Below, in pieces: positions 3,376 to 26,038 of a stretch of 38,895 nucleotides of DNA. Source of the DNA: Pirellulales bacterium (lineage in GTDB: Bacteria > Planctomycetota > Planctomycetia > Pirellulales > UBA1268). The notes below the pieces were generated by a model that was given only the letters and a program-made list of their open reading frames with translations, made no database searches and was not told the origin of the DNA. The stretch lies in NCBI GenBank assembly GCA_044346795.1, contig JBIIYN010000001.1, positions 1 to 38,895 of the forward strand. The letters are read 5' to 3'. A program made the translations under genes and the position numbers. Position 1 is the stretch's first letter, and each line of letters opens with the position of its first letter.

Positions 3376-6300
3376 TCAGGGTGCCGGCGAGGGCTCGATG
3401 GTGTGCAGCGGCTCCGGCCTGGCGACGTTCCAGATGCGCAGCCGGCCGTCCTGACCGCCTGCCGCGACCGTCGGCCCGACGACCGCCAACGAGTGCACGA
3501 AGTCGCCGGCGCCCGTGAGCTGGCGGACAGCGGCACCGCTGGCCGCATTGAAGACACGGACGGTCGCATCGCCCGAGGAGGCGACGATTTCGTCCCCCTC
3601 CCCGATGAACCGCACGCTCGTCACCTCGCGGCCCGGCCCGGTGATCGTGCGTTGCTGCTCACCCAAGGACACGTCCCAAACCTTCACCACGTTGTCGCCG
3701 CCGCCGCTCACCAGCCGGCGACCGTGCGCCTGCCAGGCCACGCCCAGGACGTGACCGGTGTGCCCCTCGAAGGATCGCTCGGTCTTCCCGTCGGCGATCA
3801 GGTGGATTTTCGCGAAGCGGTCGGTGCCGCCCGAGGCGAGTCGGTCTCCCGTCCGCGAGAAGGCGACCGCCACGACGGTGTCGGAGTGGGGCTGCGGGAT
3901 CGACCGGGCGAGCGTGCCGTCGGCCGTCCTCCAGAGCTTGATCTCGCCGGAACGGCTGGCCAGTCCGCTGCCGGAGGCGAGCAGGCTGCCGTCGGGGGAG
4001 AAGGCGAGCGCCAGCACGGCGTCGATCGGCGGACCGGTCGGATCGTCATCGGCCGCCGGGGGCGTCTTCTCCCCGCCGATCGTGCGGACGAGGCTCCACT
4101 GCTCGCGGACGTCGGTGACCGTGGCGGCGGCCGGCCCGCCCGCGACCACCAAGCGGCCGTCGCCGATCAACGCGAGTCCTGCCGCCTGCGCCGCCACGGC
4201 TACGCTCCGCCGCGGCTGGCCATCCTGTGCTCCCGCGAAAACAGCCCAGCCGGTCGGATCGAGCGCCACGAGGCCCGAGGCATCGGCCGCGAACGCCACG
4301 GCGATGAAGGGGCGGGCCGAGGCGTTTCGCTCGGCATCGATCCCCACCCGTTCGGTCTCGGCCGTCTTGAGGCGTCCCTCCATCGCGGCGAGATCCGCCT
4401 GACGGGCGGGAACCGCCTCGTCGGCCCGCTTCACCTCGGCGGCGGCGAACTCGCCATCCCGCTTGGCGCTGTCGATGCCGGTGCGGGCCTTGGCGAGCGG
4501 CTCGTCGGCGGCCGCCTGGGCCTTCACCTTCTCGGCCGCCTTCGTCGCAAGATCGGTGGCCTTGGCCTTCAACTTCTCGACATGCTGGCGTGCCTGCGCG
4601 ACGGCCTGATCGGCGGCGGTCTTCGCGGCGGAAGCGGCGGCCGATGCCGCCTGCAGTGTTTTATTGGTCTCGGCCGCGTCGGCATTGCCTTCGGCAACCT
4701 TCGCGAAGGCCGCGGCCGCCGCGGCGGCGGCATCGGCCCCGGCAGCCGCCGATGCGGCGGCCTTTGTGGCGACCTCGACGGCCGCTTCCGCCAGCGGCAC
4801 GGCGGCCGCGGCGATGGCGGAAAGCCTGTCGGCCTCGTCGCGGGCGGTCTTCGCGGCCTTGGCGGCCTCGTCCGTCTCCTTGAAGGTCTTCTCGGCTGCG
4901 GCGAGCTTCTCGCCGGCCTTCTTCACCTCTTCGGCGGCCGTGCCCTTGGCCTTCTCGGCGGCGGCCACTTGCGCCTTGGCAAACTCCACATCCTGCTTGA
5001 GGACGGCGATGTCGGCATCCCGGGCGGCGAGCCGGTTGGCAATGCGATGGTCGCCAACAGCGTGCAGGATCATCGCTCCGCCGGCGGCGTTCCAGAGCTT
5101 GAAGCCCGGGAGGGTACCGACGGATGCCAGCCGGCTGCCGTCGGGGCTGACGGCGATGCCCGCCACTGCGCCGCCGTGGGCGAACTGCCGCACGACACCG
5201 CCGTTTTCCAGATTCCACAGCCGCACGACGCCATCCCCGCAGCCCGCCACGACATGGCCGGACACGGCAGGCATCTCGACCAGGCCCACCAACGGCTGGG
5301 GGGCGCCGGCGATCTCCTTGGTCGGCCGGGCGGCCGCGGGATCGGCCGCGGCCTCCGCCAGCGGCAGTTCCCAGACCCGCAGCACGTTGTCGGCCTCCGC
5401 CGTCACGAGGCGGGTGCCGCCGTTCACGACGGCGAGCGACCGCACCTCACGGGGGCGGACGAGCCGCCCCAGCGCCGCGCCGTCGGCCAGCCGCCAGGCG
5501 GTGACGACGTTGTCCTTCGTGGCGGCGAACAGGCTGCCGCCATCCGGCGCCATCGCCGCGGCCATGACGGGCTGCCCCGGCATGCCGATGAGCCTCCTGG
5601 CCGACTCGGGCTCCGGGGCCGCCGCATCGACCACGGCGAGGCGGCCGTCGGGCAGCCCCAGCACGACCATGCCGCCGTTGGCCGCCCGGGCCAGGAGCGT
5701 GGCTCCCGCAGTGTCGGGCAGTTCGGCGATCCTTCGCGGCTCGGCCCGCTTCCAGATCTTGATCGTGCGGAACGATCCCGTTGCGAGCAGATCCTCGGCG
5801 GGTGAAAAAGCCAAGGCCGAGACCGTGTCGGCATGGGCGAGATCGGGTGCGAAGTCTGCCAGACCCGGATCGACCAGTGTCGTGAGGCCCCGACCGGAGA
5901 GCGTGTCGAAGAGGCTGACCCGCCCGGCCCGGGCAGCGGCCGTCATCCGGCCATCGGCCGACATCGCCACGGCGATGACGCCGCCGGTTCCCTTGGGCAA
6001 CGGCCGCCATTGGATCGGTTTGGCGACCACCGCCGCCGCCTTCGCCCCCTCGGCGATCCAGCGCTCGAGCAGGCCGAGCTGCTCGGGCGAGAGATTCTTC
6101 GCCCCCACCGAGTTGGACGGGGGCGGCATGAAATCCTCCTGTCGATGGCTCGCCCGCAGGAAGAGCACGCTCTCCGCGGGCTTGCCCGCCACCACCGACG
6201 GCCCCGAGTCGCCACCGGCGAGGATGCGATCGAGGGAATCCATCGAGAGCCCCCCCTCCCGCACCTTCTGGTTGTGGCAGGCGGTGCAGTTCGCCGCGAG

Positions 6301-6474
6301 CATCGGCAACACCTCATCCACGAAGCGGACGGGATCCTGGCGGGCGGGAACCGCGATCGGAAGGCCCTCTGCGGCGGCCGGCCGCAGGCCGATGGCAAGC
6401 AGCAGGCAGATCGACAGGCTCCCGGCGTTCGTCGTCGCCCGCGGGCTCCCGATATTCTTGATGCCACGGGTCAT
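3376..6474 (-). CDS. Secreted PSCyt1 (CxxCH) domain + WD40 beta-propeller protein with central Ala-rich coiled coil, 1032 aa (cassette arm A, gene 3)
   Basis: Full-length ORF. ATG 6472-6474 overlaps the upstream stop (ATGA). Hydrophobic N-terminus, then a PSCyt1 block with NCTACHN (CxxCH codons 6274-6288) and GDSGP..GKPAES. WD40-like blades (LATGSFRTIKIWK, GCGDGVVRLWN, LASGGTDRFAKIHL, GGDNVVKVWD, GQDGRLRIWN) lie on both sides of a ~240-aa Ala/Lys/Glu-rich segment. Confidence 0.9.
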   Translation of the reverse strand: MTRGIKNIGSPRATTNAGSLSICLLLAIGLRPAAAEGLPIAVPARQDPVRFVDEVLPMLAANCTACHNQKVREGGLSMDSLDRILAGGDSGPSVVAGKPAESVLFLRASHRQEDFMPPPSNSVGAKNLSPEQLGLLERWIAEGAKAAAVVAKPIQWRPLPKGTGGVIAVAMSADGRMTAAARAGRVSLFDTLSGRGLTTLVDPGLADFAPDLAHADTVSALAFSPAEDLLATGSFRTIKIWKRAEPRRIAELPDTAGATLLARAANGGMVVLGLPDGRLAVVDAAAPEPESARRLIGMPGQPVMAAAMAPDGGSLFAATKDNVVTAWRLADGAALGRLVRPREVRSLAVVNGGTRLVTAEADNVLRVWELPLAEAAADPAAARPTKEIAGAPQPLVGLVEMPAVSGHVVAGCGDGVVRLWNLENGGVVRQFAHGGAVAGIAVSPDGSRLASVGTLPGFKLWNAAGGAMILHAVGDHRIANRLAARDADIAVLKQDVEFAKAQVAAAEKAKGTAAEEVKKAGEKLAAAEKTFKETDEAAKAAKTARDEADRLSAIAAAAVPLAEAAVEVATKAAASAAAGADAAAAAAAAFAKVAEGNADAAETNKTLQAASAAASAAKTAADQAVAQARQHVEKLKAKATDLATKAAEKVKAQAAADEPLAKARTGIDSAKRDGEFAAAEVKRADEAVPARQADLAAMEGRLKTAETERVGIDAERNASARPFIAVAFAADASGLVALDPTGWAVFAGAQDGQPRRSVAVAAQAAGLALIGDGRLVVAGGPAAATVTDVREQWSLVRTIGGEKTPPAADDDPTGPPIDAVLALAFSPDGSLLASGSGLASRSGEIKLWRTADGTLARSIPQPHSDTVVAVAFSRTGDRLASGGTDRFAKIHLIADGKTERSFEGHTGHVLGVAWQAHGRRLVSGGGDNVVKVWDVSLGEQQRTITGPGREVTSVRFIGEGDEIVASSGDATVRVFNAASGAAVRQLTGAGDFVHSLAVVGPTVAAGGQDGRLRIWNVARPEPLHTIEPSPAP
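4320..5050 (-). other. Ala/Lys/Glu-rich coiled-coil-like coding segment splitting the WD40 blocks (arm A)
   Basis: Encodes ..RLAARDADIAVLKQDVEFAKAQVAAAEKAKGTAAEEVKKAGEKLAAAEKTFKETDEAAKAAK....RQADLAAMEGRLKTAETER.. with no WD40-like blades. Coordinates are approximate. Confidence 0.7.
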
Positions 6475-9398
6475 GGCTTGGCAGGCTCCTGCGGCTTGGG
6501 GGCGACCACGAGCGAGATCTTCTGCTCGAACGCGACTTCCCGGTCGAAGAACGAAACCTTTCCCTTGAACGCGAGCGTGTGCGTGCCCGGCGGCGTGCCC
6601 GGCGTGGTCGTGACCTTGAGCGCCGCCTTGGCCGCCTCGGGCGGCACGGTGGCCGGCGCGATCGTGAGCCCCGCCACGGGCGTCGGGCTCGCGGCCTCCA
6701 GAAACACCGGCCCCGCGAAGCCGTACTTCCGCTCGAGATCGACCCCGATGTCGACCGACCCGCCGGCCTCCACCTTCAGGCCGGCCGGATCGGTCTTGAG
6801 TTCGACGGGCGACTCGTCGACGACCAGCGTGATCGGCGGCATCAGCACCGGCACGTCGATGTCCTTGGGGGCGCTGGCCGTGGCGGTGTCGGCGGCGGTT
6901 TTTTCCCGTCTGACCCGCTCCTCCTCGGCGGCCTTGAAGGCCCCCTCCGCTGCCGCGAGGGCGTTCCTGGCGACATCCCGCGCGGCCACCATTTCGGCGG
7001 CGGGCTCGCCGCCGCCGGCCTGCACGTCCGCCAGCTGCTTTTCCGCGGCGGCGAGGGCCTGCTTCGCGGCCTCCACCTTCGCGGCCCGTTCCTTGGCCAG
7101 CACCGCAACCCGTTCCGCATCGGCCTTCGCCCGGGCGGCCGCATCAGGATTGCGGGCGAACGACAGCTTGGCCACGCCCCGCAGGGCCACCGTGTAGGTG
7201 CCGGGCGGGAGCTTGGGGTCGATATCGACGGCGACCTCACCCGAGGAGGCCTGCGGCGGCATCGGCTGGCCGGCCGGCTGCCCCTCCGGCGGTTTCACCT
7301 CGGCGATCTTCACCTCGGGCACCTTCAGTTCCGCCGGCAGCTTCATCTCCGGCGGGTAGGCCACCGCCGCGAGCGAGAGCGGCCCCTTGCAGCCCGCCCG
7401 ATGGACGACATCGATCGGGATCGCGAGCTTCCCACCCCGCGCCGTCTCCCAGGCCTTCGATTCCTTGGGCCGCACCGTCACCGGAGCGGAGTCGGCGGTG
7501 ACGGCCACCCGGAGCGAGTCGGTCTGTCGCACCAGGTGCGGCTGCCGCTGCTGGTTGTCGACATTCCAGCGAAGGGTCGCGGCCCGGGCGGTGCGGGTGA
7601 TGTCCGCCTCGCCATTCCTGGACCGGCCAACGAGCCGGAAGGTCTTCTCCACCGGCTTGGCGTCGTCGGCGGCCTGCAGCACGACCACGCCTCGCCGCGC
7701 CTTGCCCGCGATCACGACCGGCGCCGCCGTCACGCCGGCGGGCAGATCCTCGGCCGTCACGGTAATGTCCCCCGCGAAGCCGTCCTGCCGCAGCACGAGC
7801 AGGTCGATCGCGACCGCGCCGCCCACGGCCAGGGAGGTGGATCCGATCAGCATTTTGTTGGCGTCGGCCCGGTCGGGGCTGACGACCATCGCGAGCAGGT
7901 CGAAGCCGGGCCGCGGCTCGCGGATCTCGAGCACGTAGCCCGCCGCGCGGTCGGCGACGGAGTCGACCGACTGCTCCCAGACTCCCACCCGGTAGCGGCC
8001 TTCGACCGGAGCCTTGAAGCGGAGAATCGGATCGAGCGTCGGTTGATCGACCGTGAGGCCCTGGAACTCCTTTGGCCCGTCGTCGGCGAATGCCAGCTCC
8101 TTCACCTGCGGGTTCCCCTCGGCATGGACGGCCACGCTCTCGACGAGGATCGCGGCATCGGTGGCGAAGCCGAGCCTGCGCGAGAACAACTCCAACACCA
8201 TCTCCTCTCCCGCCTTGGCGTCGAAGGAAAACCAGTCGCGGTCCCCCAGCGGAAAAAACCGGCCGGCGACGGCGGCCGGCCGCGGCACCGCCTGAGGCGT
8301 CGCCGGGTCGTCGTTGGGCTCCTGCTCCTGCACGACGGGCAGATCGACCTCCAGCACGGCGGGCTGCCGCGTCGCCGCGTCGAAGACGCCGCCCCGCAGG
8401 AACACCAAGTCGGCCGTGCTGTCCCAGGGGGAGAGCAGCCGCCAGGCGGGCCGTACGGGCGAGCCGAAGGCGATGTCGCCGGGGCTCACCTGCACCGGTT
8501 TCTGCTCGAGGTCGCCGTCGCCGTCGGGCATCGGCTGTGCACCCTGGCCGAGGCCGCGGCCGGTGACCGTGAAGGTGGCCGACTCGCCGGTCTTCGCCGC
8601 CGGCGGAAAGATTGCCACCACGACCGGGCCGGTCGACACCCCGAGCCTGTAGAAGAAGCCGTCGCCGCCGCCGGCAAACCGGTCGTGCACACGGATCAGA
8701 TACCGGCCGGAACGGGCGGCCGTGAAGTCGATCGCGGGATCTTCGGCGATGCTGTCGGCCGCGACCTCCACCTTCCGATGCTCCGCGTCGAACACGGTGA
8801 TCTCCGGCGTCATCCGCGAGTCGATCCGGCGGGCCCACATCTCGGCGTGGACCCTCTGCCCGGCGTGGCACTCGATGGCGTAATGATCGGCCGTGTTCGC
8901 ATCGACGCGGGCGTTCACCGAGGCCTCGAGCGGAATGGCCAGCGGCTTCTCGGCCGAGTCGATCGGGCCCGACTTGCGGAATTCAGGTGCCAGCCCCACC
9001 ACAAAGCCCCGCGGGCTGCTCACACCGTAGCGGCAGACGACCGTCGCGTCGTAGAGGCCCGCCGGCACGTCTGCCGCGATCGTGACGGCCATGCGTCCGG
9101 GCATGGACCTCGGCTCCGGATCAAATTCCGTGGGTGGCGTCATCACCGGCTTCGCGGTGATGCCGGGGTGGGAGAAGGTCAGGGCGGTCGCCTCGTCGAG
9201 ATCGCTCCCCGCGAGGGTCACCTCGATGGTCGTGCCCCGCAATCCGCCGGGCGGATCGATCGCAGTGAGCCGCGGCTCCGGAAACTCCGCCCGGGCGAGA
9301 CCCGAGCCCACGAACGACAGCGCGACGAGCCCCACGCCAAACAGGCGAGCGGCAAGCAGCCGGGCGGAGCGGGCCGCGAGGATTCGAATCCCGGCCAT
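6471..9398 (-). CDS. Large secreted protein with Ig/IPT-like and two pre-peptidase-C-terminal-like (PPC) blocks plus Ala-rich coiled coil, 975 aa (arm A, gene 2)
   Basis: The ORF track begins at a TTG (9416). I prefer ATG 9396-9398 (MAGIRIL..), 8 nt after AAGGAGG. Signal peptide present. PPC-like blocks are ADHYAIECHAGQRVHAEMW...YLIRVHD and EQEPNDDPATPQ..GDRDWFSFDAKAGEEMVLEL...YRVGVWEQ. The coiled coil lies at 6861-7151. The domain calls are less certain than the CDS call. Confidence 0.85.
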   Translation of the reverse strand: MAGIRILAARSARLLAARLFGVGLVALSFVGSGLARAEFPEPRLTAIDPPGGLRGTTIEVTLAGSDLDEATALTFSHPGITAKPVMTPPTEFDPEPRSMPGRMAVTIAADVPAGLYDATVVCRYGVSSPRGFVVGLAPEFRKSGPIDSAEKPLAIPLEASVNARVDANTADHYAIECHAGQRVHAEMWARRIDSRMTPEITVFDAEHRKVEVAADSIAEDPAIDFTAARSGRYLIRVHDRFAGGGDGFFYRLGVSTGPVVVAIFPPAAKTGESATFTVTGRGLGQGAQPMPDGDGDLEQKPVQVSPGDIAFGSPVRPAWRLLSPWDSTADLVFLRGGVFDAATRQPAVLEVDLPVVQEQEPNDDPATPQAVPRPAAVAGRFFPLGDRDWFSFDAKAGEEMVLELFSRRLGFATDAAILVESVAVHAEGNPQVKELAFADDGPKEFQGLTVDQPTLDPILRFKAPVEGRYRVGVWEQSVDSVADRAAGYVLEIREPRPGFDLLAMVVSPDRADANKMLIGSTSLAVGGAVAIDLLVLRQDGFAGDITVTAEDLPAGVTAAPVVIAGKARRGVVVLQAADDAKPVEKTFRLVGRSRNGEADITRTARAATLRWNVDNQQRQPHLVRQTDSLRVAVTADSAPVTVRPKESKAWETARGGKLAIPIDVVHRAGCKGPLSLAAVAYPPEMKLPAELKVPEVKIAEVKPPEGQPAGQPMPPQASSGEVAVDIDPKLPPGTYTVALRGVAKLSFARNPDAAARAKADAERVAVLAKERAAKVEAAKQALAAAEKQLADVQAGGGEPAAEMVAARDVARNALAAAEGAFKAAEEERVRREKTAADTATASAPKDIDVPVLMPPITLVVDESPVELKTDPAGLKVEAGGSVDIGVDLERKYGFAGPVFLEAASPTPVAGLTIAPATVPPEAAKAALKVTTTPGTPPGTHTLAFKGKVSFFDREVAFEQKISLVVAPKPQEPAKP
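6861..7151 (-). other. ~97-aa Ala-rich coiled-coil-like insert in the PPC/Ig protein (arm A)
   Basis: Encodes NPDAAARAKADAERVAVLAKERAAKVEAAKQALAAAEKQLADVQ...AFKAAEEERVRREKTAADT, lying between Ig-like domains. Confidence 0.65.
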
Positions 9399-9412
9399 GA
9401 ATCGGTCCTCCT

Positions 9413-11995: not shown

Positions 11996-12420
11996 TGGAA
12001 TCCTCCGTGTCACGAGGGTCTCCGTACCGGTGCAAACAGGATTCTTATAGTGTGACCTCAAACCGCTGGCCGCGAAACCCTTCGGCGGCTGATTCCCGGC
12101 CCCGTACCCCTCAACATTGTGGAAAAAGTGTCGTTTTTGCCTGCTGAATGATACTTGTTGCGATCGGAAGCCCCCCCGGGATCACCCCTGTTCGCCGTCC
12201 CGGGGATCACCTTCCTGGAGGGCGACTTCGGGCGTGCGGGAATATGGAGATGACTCCCTCTGGTTCGCTCCACTCAGATCCCTCTTTGGAAGCGGTGCTG
12301 TTGAAGGGGGGGTAGGTCAAGAACGCGGGCATGAAGCCGAAGCAGGACAAAAAGGCGCCCGCCGCCAAGAAGTAGGCAGATGGGTCGGGTTTCGTGCGCC
12401 GCGTTTCAACCGGGAATTCG

Positions 12421-12449
12421 TTGCGAGGGGCCATCGACCGGTCTATACT
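12421..12449 (+). promoter_or_regulatory. Candidate sigma70-like promoter TTGCGA-N17-TATACT, 8 nt upstream of the NPP start codon (possible leaderless mRNA)
   Basis: TTGCGA at 12421-12426, a 17-nt spacer, and TATACT at 12444-12449. ATG at 12458 has no Shine-Dalgarno-like purine run in between (cccgcagc). Pattern match only. Confidence 0.35.
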
Positions 12450-12457
12450 CCCGCAGC

Positions 12458-14080
12458 ATGCCCCCCCTCACGGATCGCGTGACACAGCGGCTCGAGTCGA
12501 GTGAGCGTTACCGCCAGCTGGTCATCGGCTTGGATGCGATGGAGTGGGCCCTCGTGGAGCAGTGGATGGGGCAGGGAAAGATGCCCACCTTCCAGCGGCT
12601 GATGCAGCAGGGGGTGCGAGCATCGCTGCGGAGCGTGTCGGAGCAATTGCCCGACACCGTGTGGCCGGCGGTGTTCACGGGCGCGAACCCCGCGAAGTTC
12701 GAGAAGTATTTCTATGTTCAATACGATCCCGCGACGGCGGGCCTGAAGCATGTTTCAGACGACGTGATTCAGACTCGGCCCTTCTGGGAGTACTTGAGCG
12801 ACGCGGGCGTGCCGGTGGGGGTGGTGGATGTTCCACATTTCAAGGCGAGCCGGCAGCTGAGGGGTTTTCAGGTCTCCAACTGGGGCTCTCATGCGACCAA
12901 AACGTCGCGGGTATCGACGCCGCCCGAGTTGCTCACGGAGATCGACCGTCGCTTCGGCAAGCATCCGGTGGGCGACTGCGACGCGACGGACTGCCAGCCC
13001 AAAGCACTGGCCGGTCTCAAGCGGCGGGTGCTCGATGGCGTCCGGAAACATGGCGAGCTCTTTCGCTGGGTGATGCGCACCCGGGAGTGGGAGACTCTGG
13101 TGGTCGCATTCAGCGCGCCGCACTGCATCGGACACCACTTCTGGCATTGGCTGGATCCGCAACACCCCCGGCATGGCGAGAAGGACGATTACGATTTGGC
13201 CGACGCCATCGAGCAAGTCTACCGCGCGATCGACCGCGAACTGGGACAGATGCTCGAAATGGTCGACTCGCGGACACGGCTGATGGTCGTGGCGGCTCAT
13301 GGAATGGGGCCGATCTACCATGCGTCGTGGAATCTGCCCGAGATCCTGCAGTTGCTGGGCCATGGTCGCACTCCGCACGAGTCCCGGACGGGCAGCGGTG
13401 CCCGCTCGGCGAAATCGGAGCCCAAGCGGACGGCGAAGGTCAATCCCTGGCGCGTGCTGAAGATGATGTTGCCGGGCAGGCTTCAGTATGCCATCAAGGC
13501 AATGCTGCCGAAGTGGGCGGCGGATGAGCTTCTGTTTCGGTGGTATGCGGGCGACCGGAATTGGAAAGGGCTGCGCGCCTTCGCCATCCCGAACAACGAC
13601 ACGGTGGGCGCCATTCGCATCAGCGTGCGGGGCCGGGATCACGACGGGCTGGTCGAGCCTGGAGAACCCTATCGTGCTCTCTGTCGGGAAATCAGCGACC
13701 GGCTCATGGAACTGACCGACCCGGTGACAGGCAAGCACGTGGTCAAGAAAGTGACGCTGTTGCACGAGGAGTTCCAGGGCCCGTTCGTGGATGGGCTGCC
13801 TGACCTGACGGTGCTGTGGGAGACGAGCTTTCCCTGGTCGCAGCTGCATTCGCCGGTCTTCGGTACGTTGGACATCCGTCGACAGGACGGCCGAACCGGC
13901 AGTCACTCCGACCATGGCTTTGCGCTGATGTACGGTCCAGAGGTGCCGCACGGCCAGGTGTTGGACGAATGCACCTTGTACGACGTGGCCCCCACGATCT
14001 TGGCGAACGCGGGCGTTCCCACGCCGGGCCACATGGACGGCCAATCGCTCACTGCCCGCTGGCTGAAAAACGGTGAATGA
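12458..14080 (+). CDS. Type I phosphodiesterase / nucleotide pyrophosphatase (NPP, alkaline-phosphatase superfamily) family protein, 540 aa, no signal peptide
   Basis: In frame with ORF 12380..14080. Start chosen at MPPLTDRV (ATG 12458), about 19 aa before the LVIGLDAMEW first beta-strand/metal-Asp motif. Other blocks are LPDTVWPAVFTGANP, VVAAHGMGP and GSHSDHGFALMYGP. An alternative start is ATG 12380. Confidence 0.8.
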   Translation: MPPLTDRVTQRLESSERYRQLVIGLDAMEWALVEQWMGQGKMPTFQRLMQQGVRASLRSVSEQLPDTVWPAVFTGANPAKFEKYFYVQYDPATAGLKHVSDDVIQTRPFWEYLSDAGVPVGVVDVPHFKASRQLRGFQVSNWGSHATKTSRVSTPPELLTEIDRRFGKHPVGDCDATDCQPKALAGLKRRVLDGVRKHGELFRWVMRTREWETLVVAFSAPHCIGHHFWHWLDPQHPRHGEKDDYDLADAIEQVYRAIDRELGQMLEMVDSRTRLMVVAAHGMGPIYHASWNLPEILQLLGHGRTPHESRTGSGARSAKSEPKRTAKVNPWRVLKMMLPGRLQYAIKAMLPKWAADELLFRWYAGDRNWKGLRAFAIPNNDTVGAIRISVRGRDHDGLVEPGEPYRALCREISDRLMELTDPVTGKHVVKKVTLLHEEFQGPFVDGLPDLTVLWETSFPWSQLHSPVFGTLDIRRQDGRTGSHSDHGFALMYGPEVPHGQVLDECTLYDVAPTILANAGVPTPGHMDGQSLTARWLKNGE

Positions 14081-14333
14081 CGCCACCATCGCCCGCCATG
14101 CCTGGTACGACAAAACCTGGCATTCCCTGGCCACGCCCCCAAACCTGCCCGCCGGTTGATTTTCGCTCCGTAACCGCCCACGCTAAAATCGACATAGTCT
14201 TTCGCGGGGCCTGTCGACCAAACCCTGGCGGCTGGACAGCACAGCGCGGTCGTCAGCTTCCTGAGCGGATTCAAAGCCACAAACCGTCCGACCCGCCTGC
14301 CCCCCTGTTCGTGCTACGCCTCGGAGACTTCCG

Positions 14334-16823: not shown

Positions 16824-16853
16824 TGCCGACACCGCCGCTGTTGGAGGAAACCC

Positions 16854-19814
16854 ATGGGCAAGTCGATCCCGGCCGCGGCGTGGGCCGCTGCGGTCCTCAC
16901 GGTATCGTTCGCCTCGGCACAGTTGCCTGAGCCGCGGCTCACGGTGATGGAGCCGCCCGGTGGCATGCGGGGCGGCAGCGTTGAGGTGACGGTCGCCGGT
17001 GGCGACCTCGACGGCCTCAGCGGCATGACCTTTTCCCACCCCGGCATCACGGCCAAGCCGGTGGCCGAAGACCCGCCGAAGCTGCTCGTCACGATCGCCG
17101 CCGACGTGCCGCCCGGCCTGCACGAGGCGGCGGTCGTCACACCCCTCGGCGTCAGCAATGCGCGGATGTTCGTGGTTGGCCGCGGTCCGGAACTGCGCAA
17201 GACGGCGGCGATCGATGCGGCCGACAAGGCGCTCGCGCTGCCGGCCGAGGCCACCGTCAACGCGCGAACCGAGGCCGATCAGGGCGACCATTACGCGATC
17301 ACGTGCGCGGCGGACAAGCGGGTCCGGGCGGAGGTCTGGGCGCAGCGGATCGACTCGCTGCTCACGCCCGTGATCACGGTGTTCGGCCCGGATGGCGAGG
17401 AAATCGAGACGATCGACGACTCCATCGCCGGCGATCCGGCCGTCGACTTCACGCCGACGAAGGCGGGCCGGCACGTGATCCGCGTGCACGACAAATTCGC
17501 CGGTGGCGGTCCCGGATACGTCTATCGGCTCGGCATCTCGACCGGGCCGGTGGTGCTCGGCGTGTTCCCGCCGGTCGTCAAGCCGGGCGGAACGGCCTCG
17601 TTCACACTCGTGGGCCGAGACCTCGGCCCGGCGGCGGTGCCGATGCCCGAAGCCGCCGACATCGGACTCCAGCAGATGCCGGTGCAGGCAAGCCCCGGCG
17701 AAATCGCCTTCGACGAGGCCGTGGTGCCGGCATGGAGAATTCTTTCGCCTTGGGACACCGCGGCCGATCTCGTCCGGCTGCGCGGCGGGCTGTTCGACGC
17801 CGCCGCCAATCAGCCACTCGCGCTGGCCGTCGACCTGCCTGTGATCGAGGAGGCGGAACCCAACGACGACCCGGCTTCGCCGCAGGCGATCGAACGGCCC
17901 GCCGCGATCGCCGGCCGGTTCCACCCGCGGGGCGACCGCGACTGGTTCACGTTCGACGCGAAGGCCGGCGAGGAGATCGTGTTCGATCTCTATTCGCGGC
18001 GGCTCGGCGGGGCGACGGACGCCGCGATCCTCGTGCAGCAGGTGGTGAAGGCTGCCGACGGCAAGCCGCAGTTCAAGGAGGTGGCCTACGCCGACGACGC
18101 GCCCGGCGCGTTCGCCGGCGAGGCGGCCCTCTCCCGCCCGTCGCTCGATCCGATGCTCACGTTCAAGGCTCCGGCGGACGGTTCCTACCGCGTGCTCGTC
18201 CGCGAGCAGTCCGTCGACTCGGTGGCGCACGTGACCACGGCGTACGTGCTGCAGGTCCGGCCCACGCGGCCCGACTTCCGCCTGCTCGCGATCGTCGCGC
18301 GGCCGTCCGCCCAGCAGGACAAGCTCGACATCGACAGCCGCAAGCTCGTCAGCAGCACGTCGCTCCCGGCGGGAGGGACGGCGCTGATCGACGTGGTGAT
18401 CCTGCGCCGGGACGGCTTCGCGGGCGAAGTCACCATCTCGGCCGAGGACCTGCCGCCCGGCGTCACCGCGCCGGCGATCACGATTCCGGCGGCCGCACAG
18501 CGGGGCGTGGTCGTGTTGCAGGCTGCCGATGACGCGCAGCCGGCCGTGAAGGCCGTGCGGCTCGTGGGCCGGGCGACGATCGGCGGCACCGAGATCGTGC
18601 GGGCGGCGACCGCCACGACGCTGCAGCGGAGCTACGGCCCCCCGGCCGATCCGCGGAGTTTTCACGCGCCGCTGCGGGTGAGCGGCGTGATCAACGTCGC
18701 CGTGACCTCCGCCGTGGCCCCGATGACCGTCCGGCCGAAGGAGCCCGGGAAGAGCTGGGAGACGTCGCGGGGCGGGACGCTCTCGGTTCCGATCGACGTC
18801 GTGCAGCGGCCGACCGCGAAGGGCGCGGTGTCCCTCGCGCCGCTCGTGCATCCCAACTCGCCGAACACGAAGCTGCCGGTCGAACTGAAGGTGACGGAGC
18901 TGAAGATCGCCGAGTTCAAGCCGGCGGCCGCCGCCGCTCCGCCGTCCCCACCGGCACCGCCGACTGCTCCCGCGCCGGCCGCCGGCCAGGCTCCGCCGCA
19001 GCCGGCCCCGCCAGCCACACCCGAGGCTTCGCCCGTGCCCCCTCCCGTCCCGCTGGTTTCCGCCACCGCGGTCACGATCGAACTCGCTCCCACGCTGGCA
19101 CCGGGCACCTACTCGGTGGCGCTCGGCGGCACGGTCAAGATGTCCTTCACGCCCAGCCCCGTGCCGGCCGCCAAGGCGAGGGCCGAGGCCAAGAACGCGG
19201 CCGACACCGTGAAGGAGCTCATGACGAAGCGCGACGCGGCGAAACAGGCCCTCGCCGCGGCGGAGGCAAAGGCCGTCGGCGGCCAGGCCGATTTCGTGGC
19301 GGCCCGCGATGCGGCGAAGGCGGCCGCCGTCGCCGCGGACGAGGCATTCATCAGAGCCGACAAGGAGCAGAAGCGGCTGGACAAGGTGGCGACGGACAGG
19401 GAGAAGGCGGCCGCGGTCAAGGACATCGATGTGCCGGTGATCCTGCCGCCGATCACGGTCGTGGTCCGCGAGTCGCCGGCGGAGCCGAAACTCGACCGCG
19501 CGGAGATCGCCGTGCAGGCGGGTGGCACGGCCGACCTCGCCGTTGCACTCGAGCGCAAATTCGGGTTCACGGGACCCGTGTCACTCGAAGCGGCGGCAGC
19601 CACGCCGGTCGCCGGCCTCTCGGTGAAGCCCGTGACGGTCGCCGCCGACGCCGCGACTGGCACGCTGCAGGTCGTGACGGCCCCCACCACGCCCCCCGGC
19701 ACGTTCACCCTTGCCGTGAAGGGGAAGATGCCGTTCGCCGGCAAGGACGTGACATTCGAGCGAAGGCTCGCGGTCGTCGTGTCGCCCAAGCCCAAGGAGC
19801 CTGCAAAGCCATGA
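16854..19814 (+). CDS. Large secreted Ig/PPC-like protein with Ala-rich coiled coil and Pro-rich linker, 986 aa (arm B, gene 2; paralog of 6471-9398)
   Basis: ATG 16854 lies after GGAGGAAACCC. Signal peptide ends ..ASAQLPEPRLTVMEPPGG. PPC-like blocks are GDHYAITCAADKRVRAEVW and EEAEPNDDPASPQ..GDRDWFTFDAKAGEEIVFDL. Pro/Ala linker at 18919-19060 and coiled coil at ~19155-19430. Confidence 0.9.
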   Translation: MGKSIPAAAWAAAVLTVSFASAQLPEPRLTVMEPPGGMRGGSVEVTVAGGDLDGLSGMTFSHPGITAKPVAEDPPKLLVTIAADVPPGLHEAAVVTPLGVSNARMFVVGRGPELRKTAAIDAADKALALPAEATVNARTEADQGDHYAITCAADKRVRAEVWAQRIDSLLTPVITVFGPDGEEIETIDDSIAGDPAVDFTPTKAGRHVIRVHDKFAGGGPGYVYRLGISTGPVVLGVFPPVVKPGGTASFTLVGRDLGPAAVPMPEAADIGLQQMPVQASPGEIAFDEAVVPAWRILSPWDTAADLVRLRGGLFDAAANQPLALAVDLPVIEEAEPNDDPASPQAIERPAAIAGRFHPRGDRDWFTFDAKAGEEIVFDLYSRRLGGATDAAILVQQVVKAADGKPQFKEVAYADDAPGAFAGEAALSRPSLDPMLTFKAPADGSYRVLVREQSVDSVAHVTTAYVLQVRPTRPDFRLLAIVARPSAQQDKLDIDSRKLVSSTSLPAGGTALIDVVILRRDGFAGEVTISAEDLPPGVTAPAITIPAAAQRGVVVLQAADDAQPAVKAVRLVGRATIGGTEIVRAATATTLQRSYGPPADPRSFHAPLRVSGVINVAVTSAVAPMTVRPKEPGKSWETSRGGTLSVPIDVVQRPTAKGAVSLAPLVHPNSPNTKLPVELKVTELKIAEFKPAAAAAPPSPPAPPTAPAPAAGQAPPQPAPPATPEASPVPPPVPLVSATAVTIELAPTLAPGTYSVALGGTVKMSFTPSPVPAAKARAEAKNAADTVKELMTKRDAAKQALAAAEAKAVGGQADFVAARDAAKAAAVAADEAFIRADKEQKRLDKVATDREKAAAVKDIDVPVILPPITVVVRESPAEPKLDRAEIAVQAGGTADLAVALERKFGFTGPVSLEAAAATPVAGLSVKPVTVAADAATGTLQVVTAPTTPPGTFTLAVKGKMPFAGKDVTFERRLAVVVSPKPKEPAKP
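19155..19430 (+). other. ~90-aa Ala-rich coiled-coil-like insert in the PPC/Ig protein (arm B)
   Basis: Encodes PAAKARAEAKNAADTVKELMTKRDAAKQALAAAEAKAVGG...AFIRADKEQKRLDKVATDREKAAAV at the same position as in arm A. Confidence 0.65.
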
Positions 19815-22800
19815 GCACCTTTCGGAGCACCTCACGATCGGCCGCCGTCGTTCCCCGTCATTTCGCGTTTCGTCGCGGCTGTATCGTCGTCAGCGGCGGA
19901 CTGGCCCTCTTGATCGGCGGCGGCACGCTGCCGACGACGGCCCGTGCCGCCGGTCTCCCGGTCACGACCCCGAACCGCAAGGAGCCGGTGCGGTTCGGCG
20001 ACGAGATCGTGCCGCTGCTCGCGGCGAACTGCACCGCCTGCCACAACAAGACGCTCGCCGAGGGGGGGCTGTCGATGGAGTCGCTGGCGACGATGCAGAA
20101 AGGGGGCGACTCGGGCCCGGCGATCGCGGCCGGCAAGCCGGCGGAGAGCGTGCTCTTCCAGCGGGCGTCGCACCGGCAGGGGGACGCGATGCCCCCGGCC
20201 GACAACAAGGTCGGCGCGAAGAACCTCACGCCCGAGCAACTCGGGCTGCTCGAACGGTGGATCGCCGAAGGAGCCGGGGGCTCGGAGATCGTCGCCAAGC
20301 CGATCAACTGGCGGCCGCCGCCGAAGGGGATCGGAGGCGTGATCGCCGTGGCGATGTCGGCGGACGGCCAGCTCACCGCGGCGGCCCGGGGCGGCCGGCT
20401 GACGGTGTTCGACACGCAGAGCGGCACATCGCTGGCGACGCTCGTCGATCCCGCGCTCGCCGGGAGCGGGCCCGATCTCGCCCACGCCGACATCATCTCG
20501 AGCGCGGCCTTCTCACCAGCCGAGGACATGCTGGCGACCGGGTCGTACCGCACGATCAAGTTCTGGAAGCGGGCCGGCGTGCGGAAGTTCGCCGACGTGG
20601 CCGGCTCGGCCGGGGCGACCGGTGCCGTTGCCGCCCGTGCGGGCTCACCGGTCGCGGTGCCGCTCGCCGACGGGCGGGTGGCGATCGTCGACACGTCCGC
20701 CGCTGCGCCGGCGCTCGTGCGGACCGTGGGTGCGGCCGGACCGGCGGCCGTGGCCGTGGCGATCTCGGCCGATGGCGCGGTCGTCGCGGTCGCCGGCCAG
20801 GACAAGGCCGTCAGCCTTTGGCAGGTGGCCGATGGTGCGGCGGCCGGCCGGTTCACGAGGCCTGCTGACATCCGTTCGCTCACGTTCGCCGCCGGTGGCA
20901 AGCGGCTCGTGACGGCGGAGGCCGACGGCGTGCTGCGGGTGTGGGAATCGCCCGTCGCCGGCGGGGACCCTGCCGCCGTGAAGCCGATCAAGGAGATCCC
21001 GGGGGCGGCCCATCCCGTGGTCGGTCTCGCGGAACTGCCGGCGGCAGCCCCGCCGGCAGCGGCCGGTCAGCCCCCCGCGACGGCCCGGGCCGCGATCGTC
21101 GTCGGCGGCTGCGGCGACGGCGCCGTCAAGCTCTGGAACATCGACACCGGCGCGATGGTTCGGCAGGTCGCCCATGGCGGCGCCGTGGCCGGCGTCGCCG
21201 TGAGCCCGGATGGCAGCGTCATCGCCTCGGTCGGCGCGGTGCCGGGCGTGAAGCTTTGGAAGGCGGCCGACGGGGCGGCCATCGCGCACACGACCGGCGA
21301 CTTCCGAATCGCCGAGCGGCTCGCCCGAAAAGACGCCGACATCGCCGTCCTCAAGCGGGATGTCGAGCATGCGAAGGCGGAGGTGGCCGCGGCCGAAAAG
21401 GGGAAAAAGGCGGCGGCCGACGAGATCAAGAAGGCGACCGACAAGCTCGCGGCCGCGGAGAAGAATCTCAAGGAAAAGGAGACGCCGTTCCTCGCCGGGA
21501 AGATGGCTCGCGAGGACGCCGAGAAGCAGGCCGCGGCGGCGACCATGGCCGTCACGCAGGCCGAGGCGGCGGTCGCGGCGGCCACGAAGGGGGTGGAAGC
21601 CCTGCCGTCCGGCGCCGACGCCGCAGCGAAGGCCGGCCCGGAGCAGGCCCTCGCGAAGGCCAGGCGGGATCTGGACATGGCGAAGGCGAAGGCCGCGCCG
21701 CTCGTGGCGGCGGTGACCGCGAAGACCGAGGCAGAGAAGCCGCTCGCACAGGCATTCACCACCGCGCAGGCCGACGCGGAGCGGACCAAGCGGTTCGCGG
21801 ACGACGTGGCTGCCGAGGCCAGGAAGGCCGACGCCGCCGTGCCGGCCCGGCAGGCGGATCAGCAGGCCGCCGAGGCGAAACTGAAAACCGTGGAGGCCGA
21901 ACGGCCCCCGATCGAGGCCGAACTGAAGGCCTCCGCCCGGCCCTTCGCGGCCGTCGCGTTCTCGCACGACGGCACGACCGTGCTGGCCATCGACGCCGTG
22001 CCGAATGGAGCCGCGTGGAACGTCGTGGCGTTCAGCGGCAAGGATGGCCAGCCCCGGCGGTCGTTCCCGATGCCCCCGCAGTCCACGGCGATCGCCGCGG
22101 CCGCAGGTGGGCGGATCGTCACGGCCGGGGGGCCGGCGCAGGCCGTCGTCCACGATGCCGGTGAGAAGTGGGATCTCGTCCGCACGATCGGCGGCGAAAA
22201 GACACCCTCGGCGGCCGACGAGGATCCTGTCGGGCCTCCGCTGGATTGCGTCTTTTCGCTGGCGTTCTCGCCCGATGGCGCGACGCTCGCCTCCGGCAGC
22301 GGCCGCTCCAGCCGCAGCGGCGAGATCAAGCTCTGGAGGACGGCCGACGGGTCGCTCATCCGGTCGATCCGGCAGGCCCACTCCGACACGGTGGTCGCCC
22401 TCGCCTTCTCCCGCGACGGTACCCGGCTGGCCTCCGGCAGCACCGACCGGTTCGCCAGGATTCATCTGGTAGCCGATGGAAAGCGGGAGCGGTCGCTCGA
22501 AGGGCACACCGGCCACGTGCTCGGCGTCGCCTGGCAGGCCGACGGCCGGCGGCTCGTGACCGCCGGGGGCGACAACGTCGTGAAGGTCTGGAAGGTGGTG
22601 ACGACCACGCTGCACGAGGACCTGAAGTTCGCCGCCACCGACCCGGCCGAGCGGACGATCCAGGGTGCCACCCGGGAGGTGAGCGGGGTGAAGTTCCTCG
22701 GCGAAGGGGACGAATTCGTGGCCACCAGCGGCGACAAGTCGATCCGCGTCGTCAACGCGGCGACCGGCGTCGTCGTCCGATCGCTCGTCGGCGCGGGCGA

Positions 22801-22927
22801 CTTCGTCAGTGCGCTGGCCGTGTCGGGCCAACGCGTGGCCGCCGGCAGCCAGGACGGCCGGCTTGGCATCTGGAAGGCGACGGAGCCCAAGCAGCTCGTG
22901 ACGGTCGAACCGGCCGCCAAGCAATGA
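19811..22927 (+). CDS. Secreted PSCyt1 (CxxCH) + WD40 protein with central Ala-rich coiled coil, 1038 aa (arm B, gene 3; paralog of 3376-6474)
   Basis: ATG 19811 overlaps the upstream stop (ATGA), exactly as in arm A. NCTACHN is encoded at 20030-20044. WD40-like blades are LATGSYRTIKFWK, GCGDGAVKLWN, LASGSTDRFARIHL, GGDNVVKVWK and SQDGRLGIWK. Coiled coil at ~21300-21945. Confidence 0.92.
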   Translation: MSTFRSTSRSAAVVPRHFAFRRGCIVVSGGLALLIGGGTLPTTARAAGLPVTTPNRKEPVRFGDEIVPLLAANCTACHNKTLAEGGLSMESLATMQKGGDSGPAIAAGKPAESVLFQRASHRQGDAMPPADNKVGAKNLTPEQLGLLERWIAEGAGGSEIVAKPINWRPPPKGIGGVIAVAMSADGQLTAAARGGRLTVFDTQSGTSLATLVDPALAGSGPDLAHADIISSAAFSPAEDMLATGSYRTIKFWKRAGVRKFADVAGSAGATGAVAARAGSPVAVPLADGRVAIVDTSAAAPALVRTVGAAGPAAVAVAISADGAVVAVAGQDKAVSLWQVADGAAAGRFTRPADIRSLTFAAGGKRLVTAEADGVLRVWESPVAGGDPAAVKPIKEIPGAAHPVVGLAELPAAAPPAAAGQPPATARAAIVVGGCGDGAVKLWNIDTGAMVRQVAHGGAVAGVAVSPDGSVIASVGAVPGVKLWKAADGAAIAHTTGDFRIAERLARKDADIAVLKRDVEHAKAEVAAAEKGKKAAADEIKKATDKLAAAEKNLKEKETPFLAGKMAREDAEKQAAAATMAVTQAEAAVAAATKGVEALPSGADAAAKAGPEQALAKARRDLDMAKAKAAPLVAAVTAKTEAEKPLAQAFTTAQADAERTKRFADDVAAEARKADAAVPARQADQQAAEAKLKTVEAERPPIEAELKASARPFAAVAFSHDGTTVLAIDAVPNGAAWNVVAFSGKDGQPRRSFPMPPQSTAIAAAAGGRIVTAGGPAQAVVHDAGEKWDLVRTIGGEKTPSAADEDPVGPPLDCVFSLAFSPDGATLASGSGRSSRSGEIKLWRTADGSLIRSIRQAHSDTVVALAFSRDGTRLASGSTDRFARIHLVADGKRERSLEGHTGHVLGVAWQADGRRLVTAGGDNVVKVWKVVTTTLHEDLKFAATDPAERTIQGATREVSGVKFLGEGDEFVATSGDKSIRVVNAATGVVVRSLVGAGDFVSALAVSGQRVAAGSQDGRLGIWKATEPKQLVTVEPAAKQ
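21300..21945 (+). other. Ala/Lys/Glu-rich coiled-coil-like coding segment splitting the WD40 blocks (arm B)
   Basis: Encodes ..RLARKDADIAVLKRDVEHAKAEVAAAEKGKKAAADEIKKATDKLAAAEKNLKEKE....RQADQQAAEAKLKTVEAER.. at the same position as in arm A. Coordinates are approximate. Confidence 0.7.
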
Positions 22928-23167
22928 GGTCCCGGGCGATTGGGAGAAATTTTTGGCCAGCCCACGGCCCAGACGAACACTGTTTTCGCGTCATTTTTTG
23001 GCGTGATCGACCTTCCCGGCGGGGGCCTGAAACCATTTGACCGGATCGGTCATGAGAAACTAGGCTGTCGAGGTTCGATGTGCCGAATGAAATGGCGGCC
23101 TGGGGACGGATTTCAACAGCCCTCCGGATTGAATCCGCCGAAACCACGATCGCTGGAGAGTGCGCCC

Positions 23168-24520
23168 ATGCTGACCATCTCAGGACGTTCGACCGGCCGA
23201 TTCTGCGACGGCATGACCCGCCGCTCGATGCTGCAGATCGGCAGTCTGGGTGTCGGCGGCCTCACGCTGGGCGACCTGCTGCGAAACGATGCGCTGGCGT
23301 CCACGGGAGTGGCCGCAGGCCCGGCCCCGAAGGCCAAGTCGGTCATCAACATCATCCTCTTGGGCGGGATTTCCCACATCGACTCGTTCGACCTGAAGCC
23401 CGACGCCCCGAGCGAGATTCGGGGCGTTTTCCAGCCGATCCACACGAACGTGCCCGGGATCGACATCTGCGAACTCCTGCCGAAGGTCGCCCAGCACGCC
23501 GACAAGTTTTCGATCGTCCGGTCGATGCACGGCTTCGTCAACGAGCACACCGACAGCCAGGCCGATTCCGGCTGGCCGACGGCGGCCAAGCGACCCGGGA
23601 TCGGAGCGGTCGTGTCGAAGGTTCTCGGCCCGTCGGATGCCTGCCCCATCAGTTCGGTCTCGCTGGGCTCCACGTTCCTGCCCCGCGGTCCCCTGACTTC
23701 CCCGGGTTACCTCGGGAGTGAGTGGAAGGATTTCGAGCCGTTCGGCCCCGGCAATCCTGGCGGGCAGGCGCCGAAGATGTCCGACAGCCTGCAGATGAAT
23801 CTGCCGAAGGACCGGTTCGCCTCGCGGACGGAGCTGCTGTCCCGGCTCGAATCGCTTCAGCAGCGGATCGAGGGCCGGAGCGACTATTCCTCCGCCGACG
23901 CATTCACCAAGAAGGCGATGGACGTGGTGCTCAGCGGCTCGATGGCCGAGGCGCTCGACATCGAGAAGGAGTCGCCGAGGACTCTCGCAGCCTACGGCCT
24001 CGACAAGGGCCGCAACGGGCGACAGGTGTTCCTCATGGCCCGCCGGCTGGTCGAGGCCGGCGTCCGGGTCGTGACGACCGCGTTCGGCGCCTGGGACACG
24101 CACTACGACAACTTCGGCGAGATGAAGCGGAAGCTGCCCGACCTCGACATCGGCTTGAGCGGGCTCCTCTCGGACCTGCACGACCGCGGCATGCTCGAAG
24201 AGACGCTCGTGATCGTGACGACCGAGTTTGGCCGGGCGCCGCGGGTTGATGCCGGCAACGGCACGGGCCCCGGCCGCACCCACTGGCCGTCGGCCGGCAC
24301 GTTCCTCATCGCCGGCGGCGGCACGCGGATGGGGCAGGTGGTCGGCTCGACGAACCGGCTGGGCGAGATGCCAGAGAACGATCCCGTCCATCTGCAGGAG
24401 TTCTTCGCGACCGTGTACCGCCAACTCGGGATCGACGTGAACTCCGTCATGCTGCACGACACAGCCGGCCGTCCGCATGCCCTGGTCGATCACCGGCGGG
24501 TGGTCGAGGATCTGATCTGA
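23168..24520 (+). CDS. DUF1501 domain protein, 450 aa
   Basis: In frame with ORF 22940..24520. ATG 23168 lies 8 nt after GGAGAG. N-terminus MLTISGRSTGRFCDGMTRRSMLQIGSLGVGGLTL (Tat-like), then LLGGISHIDSFDLKP, EIRGVFQPIHTNVPGIDICE, WDTHYDNF, TEFGRAPRVD and STNRLGE. Confidence 0.9.
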   Translation: MLTISGRSTGRFCDGMTRRSMLQIGSLGVGGLTLGDLLRNDALASTGVAAGPAPKAKSVINIILLGGISHIDSFDLKPDAPSEIRGVFQPIHTNVPGIDICELLPKVAQHADKFSIVRSMHGFVNEHTDSQADSGWPTAAKRPGIGAVVSKVLGPSDACPISSVSLGSTFLPRGPLTSPGYLGSEWKDFEPFGPGNPGGQAPKMSDSLQMNLPKDRFASRTELLSRLESLQQRIEGRSDYSSADAFTKKAMDVVLSGSMAEALDIEKESPRTLAAYGLDKGRNGRQVFLMARRLVEAGVRVVTTAFGAWDTHYDNFGEMKRKLPDLDIGLSGLLSDLHDRGMLEETLVIVTTEFGRAPRVDAGNGTGPGRTHWPSAGTFLIAGGGTRMGQVVGSTNRLGEMPENDPVHLQEFFATVYRQLGIDVNSVMLHDTAGRPHALVDHRRVVEDLI

Positions 24521-25759: not shown

Positions 25760-26038
25760 GGGACGGGCTCCGTTGGTGTCGTCAGCCGCCGGGCGAGGCG
25801 GCCCGGCCATCCCGACGCCGGGGACGAGCATACCCGGGGCGGGGGCCTCGGGGGGTGGGGCCGGCCCGCCGGGCGGCGTCGGACCGCGGGATTTTCCGCG
25901 GGATACGGACCCTCGGCCCGCCGGCCGTAACATTTCGGCCGGCGCGGACATAATCTCTGGGAGAGAGCAGGTTTCGGGATGTCGCGGATCGTCCCGGCCC
26001 GTGGTCCCGAGAATCCGTTTCCTGCGAGGAGTCACGCC

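Follow-up and report, generated by a model that had tools for sequence, protein, structure and literature searches.

A Pirellulales contig with two probable paralogous copies of the core operon of a known, functionally uncharacterised DUF1501 module

This work concerns a stretch of 38,895 nucleotides from a Pirellulales bacterium (GenBank assembly GCA_044346795.1, contig JBIIYN010000001.1, positions 1 to 38,895), which we will call the window, and a set of three genes that it carries twice, head to head. The two sets are the left (L) and right (R) arms, and the families of the first, second and third genes are G1, G2 and G3. We believe, with a probability of about 0.85, that both arms, as paralogs of each other, represent the core operon of the module that Kamneva et al. 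reported in 2012 (Genome Biol Evol 4:1375, PMC3542564), the left arm being the canonical copy and the right arm an old paralog. Among the DUF1501 loci of the Planctomycetes-Verrucomicrobia-Chlamydiae (PVC) bacteria, Kamneva et al. ranked a four-gene cluster as the most complex type. It comprises a DUF1501 protein, in which a twin-arginine signal is sometimes present, a protein with a signal peptide and a weakly supported PPC domain, a PSCyt1/Big_2/PSCyt2/PSD1 protein and a PSCyt1/WD40 protein. For this cluster they suggested electron transport targeted to the membrane, without assigning a function.

Three of these members have a clear counterpart in the window. There are DUF1501 proteins with TRRDFL or TRRSML motifs, a signal-peptide protein with a weak PPC domain (G2) and a PSCyt1/WD40 protein (G3), and their clustering is conserved. 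The PSCyt1/Big_2/PSCyt2/PSD1 protein corresponds to G1 in part: Big_2, PSCyt2 and PSD1 are matched, and the cytochrome-like N-terminal domain is a CX4CH variant outside the reach of the PSCyt1 model. The original prediction, made from the window's letters, had placed two intact, mirrored three-gene sets here and had named their domains. The reading frames bear out the first claim, and Pfam supports the second for Big_2, PSCyt2, PSD1, PSCyt1, WD40, DUF1501 and the PF01663 domain of a phosphodiesterase gene between the arms. It was also right to call the G2 and G3 proteins secreted, for N-terminal signal peptides are present and those of G2 are evident from the sequence, and to point to putative c-type heme sites, which are CNGGGCH and CxxCH in G1 and CTACH in G3, with none in G2. 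As to the PPC-like blocks it reported in G2, PPC (PF04151) scores 37.0 bits in R2, above the cut-off of 25.9 bits, and 21.8 bits in L2, below it.

The same prediction could not place the G2 and G3 proteins in any described system, and proposed that the cassette is a previously undescribed multi-subunit machine. One could argue for this from the databases: none of the proteins has a model in NCBIfam, sequence searches of the Protein Data Bank (PDB) find no relative of G2 or of DUF1501, and the core of G1 has no fold match. However, the same four-gene cluster is explicit in Kamneva et al. and is cited again later, so we consider the proposal very improbable. The word undescribed is refuted; the word uncharacterised stands. 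Our search of the literature on DUF1501, DUF1549, DUF1553, PSCyt and planctomycete-specific cytochromes found no functional study. Later papers do report carbohydrate-binding modules in related PSCyt proteins and an enrichment in genomes from oxic surface water.

The junctions between the genes are built alike in both arms. After the stop codon of G1 comes a Shine-Dalgarno site, AGGAGG or GGAGG, and then the ATG of G2, and the start codon of G3 overlaps the stop codon of G2 as ATGA. Because of these Shine-Dalgarno sites and overlaps we read each arm as a single, translationally coupled operon. By the coordinates of the called genes, the 4-nt overlap of G2 and G3 is also found in the relatives at loci L089, L085, L086-88 and L001. 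Between R3 and R4, the DUF1501 gene that follows the right arm, there is a gap of 240 nt with a weak hairpin and a terminator-like site at 22930-22945. The regions upstream of L1 and R1, when compared, have no credible direct or inverted repeat or non-coding element in common, and the promoter-type signal in the upstream regions amounts to one weak sigma-70-like site.

A scan of species genomes for G2 gave 377 confirmed matches. We assembled 108 related loci in all, and the counts that follow come from the first 84 fetched, of which 83 are counted (L002 duplicates L001). In 62 of 67 testable loci the gene immediately upstream of G2, on the same strand, is G1; in 51 of 58 the gene immediately downstream of G2 is G3; and a DUF1501 gene is found within 10 kb in 14 of the 32 loci with full flanks. 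By its own standard the original prediction would have failed had genes 2 and 3 not been regular neighbours of DUF1553 and DUF1501 genes in other genomes. It survives, since the link of both families to DUF1549/DUF1553 and DUF1501 is strongly conserved. In two distant loci, L092 (1111-12901) and L093 (1005-12886), the order is permuted to G3-DUF1501-G1-DUF1501-G2, all on one strand, with two DUF1501 genes inside the operon. Since the four families stay together despite the reshuffled order, there is strong evidence from gene neighbourhoods that G1, G2, G3 and DUF1501 form a functional unit. At least two metagenome-assembled genomes have two modules on separate contigs (L018 with L049, and L053 with L074). 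In these one copy comes from a clade about 50% identical to L2 and the other from a clade at about 33%, and the copies are not adjacent. More than one paralogous module in a genome is thus nothing unusual as such.

The two arms of the window have been apart for a long time. The original prediction called them old paralogs, which holds, and put their identity at 65-80%, which is corrected by global alignment to 69.2%, 57.0% and 60.3% of amino acids for G1, G2 and G3. At the nucleotide level the figures are 74%, 68% and 68%, and the homology spans about 2,800 residues. Identical gene order in both arms and the mirror-image layout are what might lead one to suspect a recent duplication or an assembly artefact. 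Against this stand the low nucleotide identity, the many indels between the copies, reading frames that are intact in both, and the retention of all family-invariant residues in R1 and R2; R1 keeps every invariant column of the 64-sequence alignment of the G1 family. At four-fold degenerate sites the arms agree in 51% of positions, with a G+C content of third codon positions (GC3) near 0.9, so these sites are close to saturation; between the left arm and its 91% identical ortholog the agreement is 73-81%. The synonymous divergence (dS) is 0.71-0.84 between the arms and 0.26-0.39 for the same ortholog comparison; the between-arm dS, computed by the NG86 method, is underestimated since GC3 is about 0.9, and the four-fold sites served as a check on it. 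The ratios of nonsynonymous to synonymous divergence (dN/dS) are 0.31, 0.44 and 0.37 for G1, G2 and G3, values that show both arms to be under purifying selection. These measures refute a recent duplication or artefact, to which we would give practically no chance at all. The arms have long been kept side by side and therefore offer a natural contrast for asking which residues tolerate change.

Which arm is the canonical one can be told from the relatives. Loci L089, L085, L086-88 and L001, whose G1 or G2 proteins are 91%, 87%, 76% and 75% identical to those of the left arm, have one cassette each, followed by a convergent DUF1501 gene and then by another DUF1501 gene. Because they share this layout with the left arm, and because the DUF1501 gene next to it, L4b, is 89-94% identical to their convergent DUF1501, we take L1-L2-L3 with L4b to be the canonical, vertically inherited copy. 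Nothing comparable is seen for the right arm. Among 5.8 billion proteins there is no right-arm ortholog, the best match of R2 being a left-arm ortholog at 55%; in a scan of JGI metagenomes the best match reaches 35%; and a second G2 gene at the same locus occurs in none of the 108 loci. R1 is equidistant, at 69-70%, from L1 and from the L1 orthologs of L089 and L086. A neighbour-joining tree gives R2 a long branch and makes it the sister of the whole left-arm clade, with the support of 167 of 200 bootstraps. R2 is 45-49% identical to outgroup sequences and L2 59-62%, so R2 has evolved faster. Taken at face value, these comparisons make the right arm (R1-R2-R3) an ancient paralog with a faster rate of evolution, so far seen in no other lineage, and place the split between the arms before the radiation of the left-arm clade.

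This leaves two origins for the right arm: an ancient duplication whose second copy other lineages have lost, or transfer from a sister lineage that has not been sampled. A horizontal transfer from an unsampled related planctomycete, possibly along with the phosphodiesterase gene, would mean that no duplication took place within this genome. It would explain why relatives with a 75-91% identical left arm have no ortholog of the right one, and it fits the equal distance of R1 from L1 and from its orthologs. The break in synteny with L089 and L085 immediately upstream of L1 speaks for it as well. Yet GC3 is the same in both arms (0.88-0.92), no mobile-element genes are seen between or beside them, and R2 is nearest to the left-arm clade, which would require the donor to be a near sister lineage so far unsampled. 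We regard such a transfer as possible, though some way short of probable.

The DUF1501 genes have a history of their own. Pfam PF07394 matches all three in the window at E values of 1e-84 to 1e-92, and the three proteins are 42-44% identical in pairwise global alignments and 38-43% in a multiple alignment. Since they are this far apart (38-44%), the duplicated unit is G1-G3 and nothing more. A shared duplication of DUF1501 with the trio is ruled out, because R4 has just 31-47% identity with the rest of the DUF1501 proteins that were aligned (41-47% with the cassette-linked ones). The original prediction had a DUF1501 gene following each set and treated these genes as part of the mirror image. 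R4 does follow on the right, but on the left the statement is true only loosely, because the gene adjoining L3 is L4b, on the plus strand and convergent with L3, with L4 beyond it on the minus strand; and as mirror-image copies the DUF1501 genes do not survive the alignment. L4b is 94%, 90%, 89% and 77% identical to the convergent DUF1501 after G3 in L089, L086, L001 and L003, and its dN/dS of 0.05-0.11 is the tightest constraint in the gene set. We conclude from these comparisons that L4b is the cognate DUF1501 of the left cassette. L4 is 39% identical to L4b. It sits in the position of the relatives' second DUF1501 gene, yet it is only about 45% identical to that of the closest relative and so is not its ortholog; it is probably a replaced gene or a different paralog. 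Its identity to the upstream DUF1501 in L003 is 58%. L4 lies near the cassette but is not its cognate DUF1501.

What kind of protein DUF1501 might be is suggested by weak matches. A profile of 19 sequences finds sulfatases and LtaS at E values of 0.17-1.2 only, over a segment of the form GLL-x-T-hhhh-x-[DE]-x-G, and against the Pfam models Sulfatase, Phosphodiest and DUF229 the E values are 0.06-0.4, below the threshold of significance. All the families so matched (sulfatases, LtaS, PF01663) are enzymes of the alkaline-phosphatase superfamily. That superfamily is also what we take to be the Pfam clan of DUF1501.

The gene between the arms, which encodes a type I phosphodiesterase/nucleotide pyrophosphatase family protein, was the centrepiece of the original prediction. 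The gene is there and it does lack a signal peptide; its central role does not hold. Might it work with the system, say as a cytoplasmic partner whose expression is controlled together with the arms from the divergent region? In favour of this are its place between them, 253 nt upstream of R1 on the same strand, and its membership, shared with DUF1501, of the alkaline-phosphatase superfamily. But tblastn finds a homolog in none of the 108 related loci (1.7 Mb), and every module protein carries an export signal while this one does not. In the relatives at 91%, 87%, 76% and 75% identity the region upstream of G1 holds neither a phosphodiesterase gene nor a mirrored copy; other, unrelated genes are found there (LOR, rhomboid, NHL, PALP and others). 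Membership is accordingly a very slim prospect, and on the comparative evidence this is the gene of an unrelated cytoplasmic protein, outside the module.

In the G1 proteins, L1 and R1, Pfam finds Big_2, with PSCyt2 at E 3e-50 and 5e-50 and PSD1 at E 3e-42 and 1e-40. L1 is laid out as a signal peptide or anchor, an immunoglobulin-like (Ig-like) domain, a small helical heme-like domain, Big_2 and a helical PSCyt2-PSD1 core of about 500 residues. The CNGGGCH (CX4CH), PHGGG and CxxCHHHP motifs are invariant in 64 of 64 orthologs, and so is the CECER of the core in the same alignment. Heme binding by CX4CH is known from cytochrome c3. The N-terminal domain of G1 weakly resembles the PSCyt1 domain of G3 (E 2e-4). 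An AlphaFold2 model built on the 64 sequences has a predicted local distance difference test score (pLDDT) of 85.3 and a predicted template-modelling score (pTM) of 0.84. Within it the PSCyt2-PSD1 core (9413-10915 on the minus strand, residues ~360-860 of L1) is mostly above a pLDDT of 90, and its sole low-confidence loops are those at the invariant CxxCHHHP and CECER, which suggests a putative cofactor or metal site there. A fold search of the PDB with the model gives no match for the core; the matches of G1 are generic Ig, macroglobulin (MG) and surface-layer (S-layer) domains at a template-modelling score (TM) of about 0.1, from which function is not transferable. A PDB sequence search with G1 gives matches to Big_2 only. 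Across its 120 best matches G1 is at least 53% identical. G2 falls to 31-35% identity to L2 across the distant clade, so the conservation of G1, like that of the cognate DUF1501, is far above that of G2.

G3 carries PSCyt1 (E 3e-14 in L3, 5e-14 in R3) and WD40 (E 1e-50 and 5e-47). L3 consists of a signal peptide, PSCyt1, a WD40 propeller, a coiled coil of about 230 residues and a second WD40 propeller, and its helix-biased windows begin at residues 481-671. The length of G3 varies widely. All 10 orthologs compared, drawn from both clades, keep its CxxCH and an MPP triplet unchanged, and the heme motif would be of the His/Met type (CxxCH...MPP). Two database matches are artefacts of the coiled coil: one of L3 to JetC of PADLOC (E 4e-5) and one to SMC in NCBIfam. 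Apart from these, the PADLOC models give the module proteins no link to an anti-phage defence system, and NCBIfam matches no family in the ten window proteins.

G2 is a different kind of protein. Its AlphaFold2 model, built on 71 sequences, has a pLDDT of 87.9 and a pTM of 0.84, and is all beta-sandwich array (Ig-like and PPC) except for one helical hairpin at residues 757-847. L2 and R2 have no heme motif and no catalytic signature. The family is large, with 1,120 clusters at 50% identity among 1.84 billion representatives at E<=1e-30. A PDB fold search returns generic multi-Ig/MG proteins and the PPC domain of ColG at a global TM of about 0.1; for the s3a/s3b PPC domains of ColG the TM is 0.41 on the target. 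In these matches the single-domain likeness alone is meaningful, and the ColG match supports a PPC-like domain in the modelled G2. The multi-MG proteins of the alpha-2-macroglobulin/complement group and the PPC domain of ColG, the best fold matches in the PDB, resemble G2 as long beta-sandwich chains, but G2 differs from alpha-2-macroglobulin and complement in having no identified thioester or bait region. We rejected membership of G2 in that group: the TM values are 0.09-0.13 with a root-mean-square deviation above 30 A, Pfam gives no A2M match, and the proteins have just 1-3 cysteines.

G1 and G3 together thus appear to hold three conserved putative heme-c motifs with putative axial ligands. 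A tentative mechanism can be drawn from these parts, which we would call possible rather than probable as a whole. G1-G3 and DUF1501 would assemble in the periplasm or at the cell envelope. G2, a non-catalytic Ig/PPC array, and G3, with its WD40 propellers and coiled coil, would be the scaffold and the substrate-binding parts. The heme domains of G3 and G1 would relay electrons to or from the PSCyt2-PSD1 core, and DUF1501, exported by the twin-arginine translocation (Tat) system and resembling the alkaline-phosphatase superfamily, would carry out ester hydrolysis or transfer on the same conserved polymer, for which a glycan is the most plausible candidate. A bolder version, which we hold to be doubtful, makes the module a new kind of periplasmic oxidative-hydrolytic complex, the PSCyt2-PSD1 core a new type of heme enzyme and the right arm neofunctionalised. 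There a short heme chain would run from the His/Met heme of G3 through the CX4CH heme of G1 to the core, the core would act with DUF1501 on a conserved envelope or glycan substrate, and the right arm would have a different substrate or a different partner, R4. That the system is a redox/hydrolytic machine was the guess of the original prediction as well as of Kamneva et al., and in both it is a proposal.

The chief rival of the proposed mechanism is a structural role. The module might be mainly an envelope assembly, a surface-layer or pore scaffold, in which the heme-like motifs are structural or sensing. G2 is after all a beta-sandwich array of about 980 residues with no catalytic signature, G3 is made of propellers and a coiled coil, one G1 ortholog (P0234) is labelled an S-layer protein by its source, and S-layer proteins are among the fold matches of the Ig parts. 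We nevertheless think a structural role unlikely. Neither the three heme motifs nor their putative axial ligands vary between clades, the trio is tightly linked to an enzyme-like, Tat-exported DUF1501 under very strong constraint, and the simple PSCyt2-PSD1/DUF1501 pairs, which occur in tens per genome with carbohydrate-binding domains, point to enzymology.

Several points weigh against our reading of the locus and of what it does. In 18 of the 32 loci with full flanks DUF1501 is not within 10 kb, and the Pfam PSCyt1 model does not detect the N-terminal domain of G1 even at E<=10. The long branch of R2 could distort its neighbour-joining placement, and the window is only part of the genome, so further copies or another origin of the right arm are possible. 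As for function, later papers state that nothing is known of it for the PSCyt, PSD and DUF1501 genes; what supports any function here is sequence and models; heme attachment at the G1 and G3 motifs is a prediction from sequence; and the matches that tie DUF1501 to the alkaline-phosphatase superfamily are sub-threshold (E 0.06-1).

The genes discussed above are collected in the table. The G+C content of the window is about 70% and spurious open reading frames (ORFs) are plentiful, yet the genes listed are real.

Table. Genes of the two arms, the DUF1501 genes beside them and the phosphodiesterase gene, in window coordinates.
Gene	Product	Coordinates	Strand	Evidence and motifs
L4	DUF1501, 466 aa, DRRGLI twin-arginine-like N-terminus	171..1571	-	Pfam PF07394 E 1e-91
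L4b	DUF1501, 459 aa, TRRDFL Tat motif	1947..3326	+	PF07394 E 3e-84
L3	G3, 1032 aa	3376..6474	-	Pfam PSCyt1, WD40; CTACH at 6274-6288
L2	G2, ~975 aa from ATG at 9398	6471..9398 (ORF to 9416)	-	AGGAGG 8 nt 5' of ATG
L1	G1, 860 aa	9413..11995	-	Pfam; CNGGGCH 11459-11479, CARCH 10388-10402, CECER
	Type I phosphodiesterase / nucleotide pyrophosphatase family protein	12458..14080	+	PF01663 E 1.6e-21
R1	G1 paralog, 829 aa	14334..16823	+	Pfam; CNGGGCH 14754-14774, CAKCH 15828-15842
R2	G2 paralog, 986 aa, longer Pro/Ala-rich insert	16854..19814	+	PPC E 6e-9; GGAGG before ATG
R3	G3 paralog, 1038 aa	19811..22927	+	Pfam; CTACH at 20030-20044
R4	DUF1501, 450 aa, TRRSML Tat-like motif	23168..24520	+	PF07394 E 4e-86

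The right flank of the window holds genes for a 3-keto-disaccharide hydrolase (DUF1080; 31686-32354, minus strand), a second FGE-sulfatase-domain protein (32493-33365, minus strand) and a GDSL lipase (24557-25759, minus strand). Genes of the 3keto-disac_hyd family are also found near the module in the relatives L001, L086 and L093. A gene at 27459-29735 (plus strand) encodes a 758-aa fusion of Peptidase_C14 (caspase) and FGE-sulfatase domains. It sits between a DUF1552 gene (25979-27430) and a PSCyt3/PSD2 gene (DUF1588/DUF1585; 29729-31702), and is thus inside the other known PVC pairing, PSCyt3/PSD2 with DUF1552. Another DUF1552 (HXXSHH) gene, at 36563-37530 on the plus strand, matches only positions 1-227 of the 307 of the profile, and a DUF1552-like C-terminal end lies in another reading frame at about 37330-37530. 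Judging by these frames it has probably suffered a frameshift or deletion, as a pseudogene or through a sequencing error.

The genes of the PSCyt, PSD and DUF1501 families are among the most abundant lineage-specific families of the Planctomycetes and Verrucomicrobia, and this locus contributes usable facts about the module without solving their function. The novelty lies in an orphan paralog set head to head with its counterpart, a G1 heme-like domain of the CX4CH type, a cognate DUF1501 gene convergent with G3 and the finding that the PSCyt2-PSD1 core has no solved fold.

It remains to set the module beside the systems already known. The PSCyt3/PSD2-5 and DUF1552 pairs, of which the right flank holds the examples just given, are a parallel PVC-specific pairing of a heme-motif protein with a partner; they differ in having other domain families and no linkage to G2 or G3. 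The simple pairs of a PSCyt1/PSCyt2/PSD1 protein with DUF1501 were reportedly described by Studholme et al. in 2004, as citing papers have it. Such PSCyt/PSD1 and DUF1501 pairs are found in both Planctomycetes and Verrucomicrobia (He et al. 2017, PMC5615132), and share with the module a PSCyt2-PSD1 core protein beside DUF1501. They differ in occurring in tens of copies per genome, with variable LamG, F5/8C or CBM domains, and in having no G2 and G3 partners, and the G1 of the module is far more conserved than the proteins of the simple pairs. One simple PSCyt2-PSD1/DUF1501 pair also lies near the cassette in the relatives L085 and L089. With the cluster of Kamneva et al. the locus shares the same four protein architectures, found together and all with export signals. 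It differs in three respects: the core trio is present twice, head to head; the heme-like domain of G1 is a CX4CH variant that the Pfam PSCyt1 model misses; and in this clade the cognate DUF1501 gene is convergent with G3 rather than on the same strand.

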